From Escherichia coli 042 (lineage in GTDB: Bacteria > Pseudomonadota > Gammaproteobacteria > Enterobacterales > Enterobacteriaceae), in the NCBI RefSeq assembly GCF_000027125.1, contig NC_017626.1: 64,000 bases of DNA; one strand, written 5' to 3'. Positions 38,243 through 38,911 of the stretch are shown here, in pieces. The stretch's first letter is position 1, and the number at the start of each line of letters is the position of its first letter. A program made the translations under genes and the position numbers. The notes beneath the pieces are model-generated. The model searched no databases, had not been told where the DNA came from, and saw only the letters and a program-made list of their open reading frames with translations.

Positions 38243-38330
38243 TTTTTTTGCGCTGACTTCAGTTATTTAACAGAACAGTGCCTGGTAGTAACAACAATAA
38301 TTTACCAAGACAAATAAGTAAGACAAACTC

Positions 38331-38362
38331 AGACACGCTCATACTTGAGTCGTGTCTTTTTT
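38331..38362 (+). terminator. rho-independent terminator downstream of zinT
   Basis: Hairpin AGACACG-(13 nt loop)-CGTGTCT followed by TTTTTT. Confidence 0.55.
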
Positions 38363-38911
38363 ATTATGTCTGTAGAAAAAAACTGCGAAAAAGGCGAACA
38401 ATAAATACACAACTCAGCCATACAGACTAGCAGCGCAAATGTTTCCAGGAGCAAGTCATCTGTCATGGTAAAGCTAACCATAAATATAGGTTAATTTTGA
38501 TGTTTAAACCTTTTTTACTTGTTAGTATGATACAAAGGCTTTCAAAAAAGCTGGGAAATTCAACAACTCTTGGAAATTATGGACTTTGTCCCGCGGCTTT
38601 AATCTGACGGCCGCGTTCCTTTTTTGGCTCAATTATTGACCCCTTCTCTACGCAACTTCAGTTCCCGCCAGCAACTTTGCGGCAGTTTCATAGGATCAAT
38701 GTCTAAAAGAATAATGGTGACCGATAAGAAAACGACTGAATAACTGTAGATTTTCGCTCGAAACCTTCCTGTCAGACCCATAGCGAATCAAGTGCTGAAT
38801 GTCACAGTATCGAACAGAAAACAGTGACGATCTAACCCTTCAAGAATATTCTACGATTGTTCTGTTTAGGAAAAGCAAGGCGGGAAGTCGGGAGATAAGT
38901 CATTGATAAAG

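Follow-up and report, generated by a model that had tools for sequence, protein, structure and literature searches.

The 64,000-nt stretch of the Escherichia coli 042 chromosome analyzed here (the window) raises the question of why yodB, which encodes a cytochrome b561 homologue, is missing between zinT and a fragment of the tRNA gene serU. In K-12 MG1655 the gene order is zinT-yodB-serU (b1973–b1975). An earlier note on this DNA, which gave that order, suggested that the strain lost yodB, possibly through events at the integration site, and that the remaining spacer carries a short ORF followed by a terminator-like hairpin, which could be a small protein or a small RNA. We compared the interval with those of K-12, other complete E. 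coli genomes, and outgroups.

Spacer content and the two zinT–serU haplotypes

The borders of the spacer and the parts that distinguish it from the K-12 interval are as follows.

37592–38242, + strand: zinT, an ORF for the metal-binding protein ZinT, annotated as zinT in the identical region of 118UI and in K-12; left border of the spacer.
38912–38973, − strand: 62-nt 3′ fragment of serU, tRNA-Ser(CGA), identical to K-12 serU up to 38973; located at the prophage junction.
38243–38464, no strand assigned: segment specific to the yodB-less haplotype; K-12-type genomes have 995 bp with yodB in its place.
38424–38464, no strand assigned: approximate empty site, at which K-12-type genomes carry a yodB cassette of ~775 bp; the boundaries are approximate and were inferred from alignments.

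The spacer is 669 bp long with a GC content of 39%, and the longest ORF in any frame is 50 aa. This agrees with the earlier statement that the roughly 670 bp contain no ORF of 60 aa or more, and a maximum of 50 aa is expected of non-coding DNA this rich in AT. That ORF (38629–38781, − strand) was rejected as coding: its 12 variable sites, tallied by hand from segregating sites, were distributed as 2, 5, and 5 over codon positions 1, 2, and 3. A 35-aa ORF (38799–38906, + strand) in the conserved block B described below was also rejected; its ATG is ATA in E. albertii. An Rfam scan of 37300–39400 at a permissive threshold gave nothing in the spacer. The region is ordinary overall. Prophage DNA starts at 38973, where the identity to K-12 serU stops; the 5′ part of serU is absent from the whole window, and ARAGORN found no tRNA in it. 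In O157:H7, the 78-bp match to window positions 38896–38973 occurs a second time, at the intact serU.

The K-12 interval is not free of genes: yodB does lie there in MG1655, as the earlier note stated, and no such gene is present in the window strain. BLAST homology to K-12 ends at the zinT stop codon and restarts at 38465, leaving 222 bp in the window strain versus 995 bp with yodB in K-12. Searches of the whole window with K-12 YodB (tblastn) and with the K-12 yodB segment (blastn) gave nothing beyond chance; the best match (E = 0.26) was outside the spacer, and none within the spacer had an E value below 4. Neither an ORF nor a remnant of the cytochrome b561/YodB type (Pfam PF01292) was found in the interval. 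The two intervals share their flanking genes and gene order, and the last 447 bp before serU, which include the hairpin, the T-run, and the serU trailer, are 96% identical, whereas the left flanks of the two haplotypes are only ~59% identical.

Both haplotypes are common. The full yodB-less spacer is present in 2,281 of 5,426 complete E. coli genomes (about 42%) and the K-12 yodB segment in 3,114, and the two forms cut across phylogroups: the B1 strains O26 and O104:H4 are yodB-less, and other A, B1, and E strains carry the gene. GC content did not serve as a mark of foreign origin for the yodB cassette (41%, compared with 38% for zinT and 39% for the spacer). A recombination tract inside zinT was also rejected; K-12 and the window differ to an even degree throughout the gene, without a gradient. 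A literature search on yodB at serU, on cybB/yceJ, or on a small RNA found only prophage-site tables and unrelated papers.

The serU prophage and the direction of change

The proposal that yodB was deleted in the window strain through integration or excision of a prophage at serU is highly improbable. The gene serU is a known busy integration site (PMC8190617, PMC9729726), and rearrangements at serU were seen in other strains (IS21 in G8, a large deletion in FDAARGOS_1373, and phage DNA near zinT in K_EC180). However, 118UI carries a 100% identical yodB-less spacer adjoining an intact, unoccupied serU, and the yodB-less form with an intact serU is also found in O26 RM8426, O104:H4, ECONIH1, MS6198, NA3664, and T-HYM1. 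O157:H7, in turn, has both yodB and the Sp14 prophage at serU (PMC8190617). An occupied and a free serU are each found both with and without yodB, so that all four combinations occur, and the absence of yodB does not track occupancy of, or scars at, the attachment site. The 447 bp from the yodB site to serU are intact and collinear in both haplotypes, with the attachment site untouched, and therefore the haplotype difference lies away from that site. The window also holds no yodB remnant. The spread over 2,281 genomes, 118UI, and O157:H7 refute a prophage-linked deletion as a strain-level event, and the suggested connection to the integration site did not hold.

We also examined whether yodB was gained or lost. 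The comparison rested on two Escherichia outgroups, E. albertii and Escherichia sp. MOD1-EC7003, the latter carrying a large deletion; the outgroup matches did not include E. fergusonii. The E. albertii spacer lacks yodB and aligns with that of the window over its whole length, including the K-12 insertion site. The local alignment of segment 38243–38464 with E. albertii gave z = 22 with 64% identity over 226 columns, versus z = 8.3 and 59% identity for the K-12 left flank. At the empty site, the window and E. albertii have in common CAGCGCAAA(T/A)G...CAGGA(G/A)CAAGT; this sequence gives way to the yodB promoter and gene in K-12. The earlier note's description of yodB as lost from the window strain is therefore not supported, since the outgroup is equally empty and shares site sequence that is absent from K-12.

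YodB homologues form an E. coli cluster of 99–100% identity, and the next full-length ones are at most 77% identical. Two apparent intermediate alleles, P0047 (84%) and P0011 (92%), were rejected as such; they are frameshifted or shortened copies of the ordinary E. coli yodB at the usual locus. Outside E. coli, the nearest relatives (76–77% identity) are carried as cargo by lambdoid prophages, and two homologues of 76% identity are placed between the lysis and terminase genes. These moron genes, for example that of Citrobacter portucalensis GCA_013345705.1 (cytochrome b561-like, 76–77% protein identity), resemble yodB in being single genes with their own promoter, and the DNA similarity reaches the upstream promoter region (71% identity for K-12 yodB plus 88 bp upstream). 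They differ from yodB in lying between lysis and terminase genes rather than in the zinT–serU spacer. The gene yodB belongs to a cytochrome b561 group whose members are also carried by prophages.

From the collinearity with E. albertii, the lack of a remnant, and the prophage-borne relatives of YodB, we infer that yodB was most likely gained in K-12-type lineages and that the window strain most likely never carried it. The K-12-type lineages would have acquired a yodB cassette of ~775 bp, comprising promoter and gene, together with flanking spacer sequence that differs strongly from that of the window; recombination with a diverged donor is the probable route. An ancestral yodB that was lost long ago, once or several times and without phages, in the ancestor of the short-spacer lineages and separately in E. 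albertii, seems unlikely. It would fit the K-12 left flank (zinT 3′ UTR and terminator), which is homologous to that of the window, though only 59% identical, so that yodB sits in a genuine old version of the spacer; it would also fit haplotypes that do not follow phylogroups cleanly. The ~59% identity of the flanks next to yodB, for which no donor was found, would suit a balanced polymorphism of long standing, or an ancient loss after which the haplotypes diverged. However, independent deletions would not recreate the empty-site sequence that the window and E. albertii share and K-12 lacks. The yodB haplotype is also of low diversity: nearly all copies of the yodB segment among the 5,426 genomes are at least 98.2% identical, versus 93.4–100% for the left segment of the yodB-less form (38243–38464), found in 2,271 of them. 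In addition, there are no YodB orthologues of intermediate divergence, and a YodB homologue was found within 4 kb of zinT at none of 80 zinT loci from other Enterobacterales, nor near zinT in any other genus sampled. We thus consider it probable that the spacer is the ancestral type of a gene-free zinT–serU region and one of two common haplotypes in E. coli, that yodB was gained in K-12-type lineages, and that the serU prophage is unrelated to its absence.

Terminators and the serU trailer

Two terminators on the + strand and two regions of serU read-through on the − strand were identified in the spacer.

38331–38363, + strand: zinT intrinsic terminator, a hairpin at 38331–38357 followed by a run of six T.
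38592–38625, + strand: second intrinsic terminator, with a 7-bp GC-rich stem, a 10-nt loop, and a UUCCUUUUUU tail.
38627–38777, − strand: variable stretch of serU read-through with a Rho-dependent termination zone at about 38669; 13 segregating sites in 151 bp.
38778–38889, − strand: conserved block B in the serU 3′ trailer, with 0 segregating sites in 112 bp (P = 7e-5).

The zinT terminator folds at −15.3 kcal/mol (z = −4.5; 0 of 200 shuffles as good), and its arms are the sole well-conserved part of the left flank between the window and K-12 haplotypes; in K-12 its T-run is degraded to GTCTGTATATT. The second terminator, which the earlier note had placed near 38590–38627, is present. Its stem (38592–38598 paired with 38609–38615) has 6 G-C pairs of 7, and the tail runs to 38625. 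A simple terminator scanner missed it, with a loop limit of 8 against the 10-nt loop. Its fold (−15.4 kcal/mol, z = −1.7, 12 of 200 shuffles as good) is unremarkable by itself. The K-12 sequence is identical to that of the window through the hairpin and the T-run, and a K-12 Term-seq 3′ end at MG1655 2043181 (+), listed in two of three growth-condition tables and classed 'orphan' (Adams et al. 2021, eLife, PMC7815308, supplementary file 1), corresponds to window position 38625, the last T of the run. The expected + strand transcript ending near 38625 is hence matched to the nucleotide by published K-12 data. This 3′ end at the orthologous last T, and not the folding energy, establishes the second hairpin as a real transcription terminator, which has a stem-loop with a U-tract and a 3′ end within the U-tract, the latter from K-12. 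In K-12, the interval from the yodB stop codon to the second hairpin contains no further terminator-like site, and 2043181 is the only mapped 3′ end downstream of zinT and yodB.

In regards to the − strand, a Rho termination region was reported at MG1655 2043225 (−), with a score of 38.97 and p = 2e-241; the upstream/downstream reads were 7705/24 in untreated cells and 9053/1099 with bicyclomycin (Adams et al. 2021, PMC7815308, supplementary file 2). Through the 96% alignment this position corresponds to about 38669 in the window. The − strand RNA of 38852–38911, the first 60 nt of the trailer, contains 19 C and 6 G, and the tRNA-proximal part of block B thus looks rut-like in composition. The bicyclomycin-sensitive drop in K-12 and the C-rich, G-poor RNA upstream in the window together indicate a Rho-dependent terminator, and the serU 3′ trailer makes up the right half of the spacer and ends, by the K-12 data, in a strong Rho-dependent zone. 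Block B is at least 99% identical to the window in 76% of genomes. Its conservation extends to E. albertii (84%) and Escherichia sp. MOD1-EC7003 (93%), whose spacers are otherwise diverged or deleted.

The sequence surrounding the orphan 3′ end and the Rho region is conserved in the window, but both were mapped in a yodB-carrying strain and are neither named nor interpreted in the tables of Adams et al. 2021. By extension from K-12, where yodB lies upstream, the same RNA ends would occur in the window strain. The spacer would then separate two convergent transcription units, with a presumed insulating role: the zinT transcript would end at its own strong intrinsic terminator, the second, highly conserved terminator would stop whatever passes or starts downstream of the first, and serU read-through would run ~240 nt through the conserved, initially C-rich trailer until Rho ends it near 38669.

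A conserved block ending in the second terminator

The second terminator forms the end of a conserved block that overlaps the short ORF.

38503–38626, + strand: conserved block A, 124 bp from a promoter-like site through the terminator; single copy and nearly invariant in E. coli.
38503–38531, + strand: sigma-70 promoter-like site (TTTAAA, 17 nt, TATGAT; 9 of 12 matches), with a predicted start near 38538.
38497–38607, + strand: short ORF of 35–36 codons (TTG at 38497 or ATG at 38500, stop at 38605–38607), MFKPFLLVSMIQRLSKKLGN...; probably not a gene.

Among 10 diverse strains without yodB, 52 sites segregate in the 669-bp spacer and 3 in the 124 bp of block A (binomial P = 0.008, an optimistic value, as the bounds of the block were set after seeing the data). 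Block A is at least 99% identical to the window in 86% of 5,417 genomes, versus 37% for the adjacent 133 bp, and segment 38500–38632 has a median of one place per genome. This promoter-to-terminator unit is more conserved than its surroundings within E. coli only; neither E. albertii nor Escherichia sp. MOD1-EC7003 has it, and the part that E. albertii lacks is bordered by an 8-bp direct repeat, CCTTTTTT. A mobile element (MITE, REP, or ERIC) was rejected for block A, which is single copy and has no terminal inverted repeats on inspection and no meaningful phage match. Plasmid records queried with the whole spacer gave no block A match outside records that look chromosomal.

Block A may possibly be a free-standing small RNA gene, transcribed from the sigma-70 promoter-like site into an ~88-nt RNA from near 38538 to 38625. 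The near-invariant block extends from the −35-like hexamer to the last T of the terminator, a terminator with a U-tail is the usual shape of an enterobacterial small RNA 3′ end, and the 'orphan' K-12 3′ end was mapped in two of the three conditions. The 90 bp before the hairpin are more conserved than a terminator alone would need, and for this reason the view of block A as an untranslated, unexpressed by-product may be wrong. The block is older than yodB if the ancestral form was the yodB-less one, in which case being a yodB 3′ UTR cannot account for its conservation. On the other hand, the promoter match, although found at the same place in K-12, is weak and of a kind expected by chance (8 matches in a consensus scan versus 5.2 expected), the fold of the predicted RNA is little better than that of shuffled sequences (z = −1.8), and the K-12 3′ end could be explained by the zinT-yodB mRNA. 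No entry for the region appears in the Cappable-seq or SMRT-Cappable-seq supplements. Compared with enterobacterial small RNAs that have their own promoter and Rho-independent terminator, the candidate is alike in predicted length, terminal hairpin and U-tail, promoter-to-terminator conservation, and intergenic position; it differs in having no Rfam family and in the restriction of its conservation to E. coli.

The small RNA reading is compatible with the haplotype history given above and competes only with the reading of block A as just a terminator.

The short ORF that the earlier note placed near 38501, with about 34 codons, does exist, but it is probably not a gene; most likely it is an untranslated by-product of the conserved block. 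That it encodes a protein of 35–36 aa appears very unlikely. None of the 19 E. coli sequences compared interrupts the frame, and each keeps at least one possible start (TTG-ATG, TTG-GTG, TTG-GTA, or TTT-GTG) with an AGGT motif 5–8 nt upstream, and two of its four variable sites are synonymous (GTG/GTA and CTG/TTG). However, four sites are too few for a codon pattern, and the near-invariant nucleotides leave no codon-position signal. The ATG at 38500 is confined to the lineage of the window strain, other strains having GTG or GTA; it occurs in ~8% of a spread sample of genome matches, and most genomes would need the TTG start. The terminator loop contains the stop codon of the ORF, E. albertii lacks most of its length, and transcription from the predicted promoter, if that is real, would begin downstream of the start codon. 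The protein was found 0 times in a collection of 15 billion predicted proteins and matched no NCBIfam family, and the searchable K-12 ribosome-profiling sORF tables (Stringer et al.) have no entry for the region. Neither translation evidence nor a coding substitution pattern was thus obtained.

Block A may possibly be an unannotated, E. coli-specific gene, present in >99% of complete genomes, for an ~88-nt small RNA or, less likely, a 36-aa protein; it would predate yodB and in K-12 would be hidden as an 'orphan' 3′ end in an apparent yodB 3′ UTR. With its sharp conservation over 124 bp and a validated terminator at its end, the unit is a candidate worth probing, and the practical yield of the locus is modest. 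For the zinT–serU locus, these comparisons correct the natural inference of loss: K-12 most likely represents the derived state. The absence of yodB from the window strain is no lesion and is uninformative about the neighbouring prophage, and the yodB-less state is typical of many extraintestinal and some B1 lineages. The cytochrome b561 homologue yodB is an accessory gene of E. coli, probably horizontally acquired, with prophage-borne relatives.

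Organization of the spacer and its borders

The spacer between zinT and the serU fragment (38243-38911, 669 bp) contained no ORF longer than 50 aa in any frame, in agreement with the earlier note, which had reported none of 60 aa or more. The short ORF and the hairpin followed by a T-run that it had described were both present. The spacer is bordered by the following features.

37592-38242, + strand: zinT, the ORF forming the left border of the spacer
38912-38973, - strand: 3' fragment of serU, tRNA-Ser(CGA), matching the 3' 62 nt of K-12 serU
38974-64000: prophage DNA integrated in serU, beginning after the serU fragment
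39624-43021, - strand: tail-fibre genes of the prophage, adjoining the serU junction

No complete tRNA was detected in the window using ARAGORN. The 5' half of serU, the prophage integrase, and an intact serU were absent from the window; the intact copy must therefore lie past the far end of the prophage, which is at least 25 kb long. The 50 bp just inside the junction were similar to the corresponding end of the O157:H7 prophage Sp14. The spacer is a convergent intergenic region, ordinary in kind but well organised, composed in order of the zinT terminator, a variable stretch including the empty yodB site, a conserved unit closing with a validated intrinsic terminator, a variable stretch in which Rho ends serU read-through, a conserved serU trailer, and the attachment-site core with the tRNA fragment. 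On the other side of zinT, in the msrQ-zinT spacer (37357-37398, - strand), Rfam gave a weak hit for the REP-derived naRNA4 (29 bits, less than the gathering score), which probably represents a REP element.

Distribution and origin of the yodB-less haplotype

The gene order in MG1655 is zinT, yodB, serU, as the earlier note had stated, and the zinT-serU interval is 1,442 bp. The window was 95% identical to K-12 up to the zinT stop codon, where homology broke off, and 96% identical from 38465 on to serU. The counterpart of the intervening 222 bp (38243-38464) in K-12 was a 995-bp stretch. Its first ~185 bp were homologous to the window at just 59% identity (local alignment z = 8.3 versus shuffles), the zinT terminator arms being best preserved, and the remainder comprised yodB with its promoter and ~90 bp of 3' sequence. 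No yodB remnant was found in the window using the YodB protein and the K-12 yodB segment as queries.

The yodB-less spacer is a common haplotype: it was found in full in 2,281 of 5,426 complete E. coli genomes, and 3,114 carried the K-12 yodB segment. The few remaining genomes were rearranged: strain G8 carried IS21, FDAARGOS_1373 had a large deletion, and K_EC180 contained phage DNA. The suggestion that the absence of yodB was linked to events at the integration site was rejected. The spacer of strain 118UI was 100% identical to that of the window and adjoined intact serU and mtfA; O26 RM8426, O104:H4, ECONIH1, MS6198, NA3664, and T-HYM1 were likewise yodB-less with an intact serU. The order in O157:H7 was zinT-yodB-spacer, tRNA fragment, Sp14 prophage, and intact serU, which agrees with published prophage-site tables (PMC8190617, PMC9729726). 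Because presence and absence of yodB were each seen with both an occupied and an unoccupied serU, and the 447 bp from the yodB site to serU were intact in both haplotypes, the absence of yodB is unrelated to the prophage.

Three circular sequences deposited as plasmids (NZ_CP146678.1, CP088862.1, and NZ_CP044147.1; 35-64 kb) contained 278 bp identical to window 38634-38911. In NZ_CP146678.1 (L108 4001-4278), the one record examined of the three, this piece adjoined phage tail genes. The three records look like excised or mis-assembled serU prophages carrying chromosomal flank. In Escherichia sp. MOD1-EC7003 (L004 4649-4830), the spacer was cut to its last 146 bp, 8 bp after zinT, and serU broke off after ~14 nt into unrelated DNA, which indicates another rearrangement at this site.

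The earlier note had proposed that yodB may have been lost. The absence itself was confirmed, and the comparison with E. albertii argues against the loss. In E. albertii, zinT is followed by a 567-bp spacer and serU, without yodB, and this spacer was alignable to that of the window over its whole length. The haplotype-specific left part gave z = 22 with 64% identity over 226 columns, including CAGCGCAAA(T/A)G...CAGGA(G/A)CAAGT exactly where K-12 has yodB. Such shared filler sequence would not be left by independent deletions. Other evidence points in the same direction. The yodB segment showed 98.2% identity or more in almost every genome, and the yodB-less left segment ranged from 93.4 to 100%. 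No YodB relatives of intermediate divergence were found; outside the E. coli cluster, full-length proteins showed at most 77% identity. Hits at 84% and 92% were rejected as intermediates, being damaged E. coli alleles of the same locus. The two relatives with checked context (P0004 and P0010, 76% identical to YodB) were single cargo genes in lambdoid prophages, flanked by the lysis cassette on one side and the HNH/terminase genes on the other. These prophage-borne relatives, from Citrobacter portucalensis and metagenome contigs (L084 4001-4540; L087 4001-4540; also L085, L086, L088, and L089), encode cytochrome b561-like proteins, and their DNA was 71% similar to K-12 yodB, reaching 88 bp upstream of the start codon into the promoter region. 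Among 80 zinT loci obtained by a ZinT scan of species-representative genomes, a YodB homologue within 4 kb of zinT was found only in K-12-like E. coli DNA, including two mislabelled MAG contigs. The latter (L037 and L075, labelled Bacillota and Bacteroides) were 98-99% identical to E. coli zinT-yodB-serU and are probably bin contamination.

On these sequence comparisons, the empty form is probably ancestral, and yodB would have arrived in K-12-type lineages. The strongly diverged K-12 flanks suggest that yodB entered through homologous recombination with a diverged donor in which it already occupied this spacer; no such donor was found. The haplotypes did not strictly follow phylogroups, yodB being absent from the B1 strains O26 and O104:H4, a pattern compatible with subsequent recombinational exchange.

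Conserved blocks and transcription termination

Two blocks of the spacer were conserved, block A (promoter-like site to terminator) and block B (in the serU 3' trailer).

Segregating sites in an alignment of ten diverse yodB-less E. coli sequences
Whole spacer, 669 bp: 52
Block A, 38503-38626, 124 bp: 3 (P = 0.008)
Block B, 38778-38889, 112 bp: 0 (P = 7e-5)
Last part of the zinT coding sequence, 143 bp: 9

Share of ~5,400 genomes at least 99% identical to the window
38500-38632 (block A): 86%
38633-38765 (between the blocks): 37%
38766-38898 (block B): 76%

Block B was more conserved than the zinT coding sequence. It was retained at 84% identity in E. albertii and at 93% in Escherichia sp. MOD1-EC7003, two genomes in which the remaining spacer sequence has diverged or been deleted, and it contains the palindrome AGAATATTCT. 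A very strong Rho termination region has been mapped in K-12 at MG1655 2043225, - strand, with 7,705 upstream and 24 downstream reads in the untreated sample, against 9,053 and 1,099 after bicyclomycin treatment (Rho score 38.97, p = 2e-241; Adams et al., supplementary file 2, PMC7815308). This position maps to ~38669, ~240 nt past the mature serU 3' end, and block B lies upstream of it. The first 60 nt of the trailer on the - strand were C-rich and G-poor (19 C, 6 G), as Rho loading sites are. Block B is C-rich only in its tRNA-proximal part, which, by composition, may be a rut site.

The terminator closing block A has the following structure.

38592-38598 / 38609-38615, + strand: hairpin stem with a 10-nt loop, followed by the tail UUCCUUUUUU to 38625

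Its folding energy (-15.4 kcal/mol) was unexceptional for its composition (z = -1.7), and we rate the terminator as real on the basis of a K-12 3' end. Term-seq placed an 'orphan' + strand 3' end at MG1655 2043181, with ~2,241 and ~1,864 reads in two of three condition tables (LB OD 2.0 and M63 glucose by caption order; absent from LB OD 0.4), and those two tables list no other 3' end on either strand between 2025257 and 2043181 (Adams et al. 2021, supplementary file 1, PMC7815308). Position 2043181 corresponds to window 38625, the final T of this T-run, so the predicted transcript end near 38625 was right to the nucleotide, in K-12 at least.

Block A and the short ORF

The short ORF overlaps block A.

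38497 (TTG) or 38500 (ATG) to the stop at 38605-38607, + strand: short ORF, with its stop codon inside the terminator loop

The frame was open in 19 of 19 E. coli sequences examined. The ATG occurred only in the lineage of this strain; GTG stands at its position in ATCC 25922, O26, and O104:H4, and GTA in K-12, O157, and ECONIH1-type strains, leaving TTG as the sole start. One strain had the start pair TTT-GTG. E. albertii is without most of the frame. The product had no match in a collection of 15 billion proteins or in NCBIfam, and a K-12 ribosome-profiling sORF supplement had no entry for it. Translation of the short ORF is very unlikely.

The terminator may simply end zinT and yodB transcripts in K-12. 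In this strain the zinT terminator (38331-38363) carries an uninterrupted run of six T, and in K-12 (L003 3119-3155) its tail is degraded (GTCTGTATATT) and the T-run lost. No other terminator-like site was found after yodB in K-12, and 2043181 is the first + strand 3' end downstream of zinT in both tables listing it. Together with the degraded tail, this suggests zinT-yodB read-through in K-12. Alternatively, block A could be an unannotated free-standing small RNA gene with a predicted transcript of ~88 nt, a possible but somewhat doubtful reading. A promoter-like site (TTTAAA, 17 nt, TATGAT) has its -35-like hexamer at the left edge of block A, and the last T of the terminator is at the right edge, the footprint expected of such a unit. 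If the empty haplotype is ancestral, block A predates yodB, and a role in serving yodB does not account for its conservation. However, the promoter-like site is a weak match of the sort that arises by chance, the fold of the predicted RNA is unremarkable (z = -1.8), Rfam gave no match in block A, and neither Escherichia sp. MOD1-EC7003 nor E. albertii has the unit. The 109 bp absent from the latter, which comprise the terminator and the greater part of the short ORF, are exactly bracketed by an 8-bp direct repeat, CCTTTTTT (38509-38516 and 38618-38625), which is compatible either with a loss in E. albertii by deletion between the two copies or with a gain in E. coli by an insertion that duplicated its target.

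A phage-derived or repeated element was rejected for block A, which is single copy and not phage-derived; in plasmid records searched with the whole spacer, it was matched only in chromosomal-looking records. The sole element of possible novelty in the spacer is block A, as a putative unannotated small RNA.
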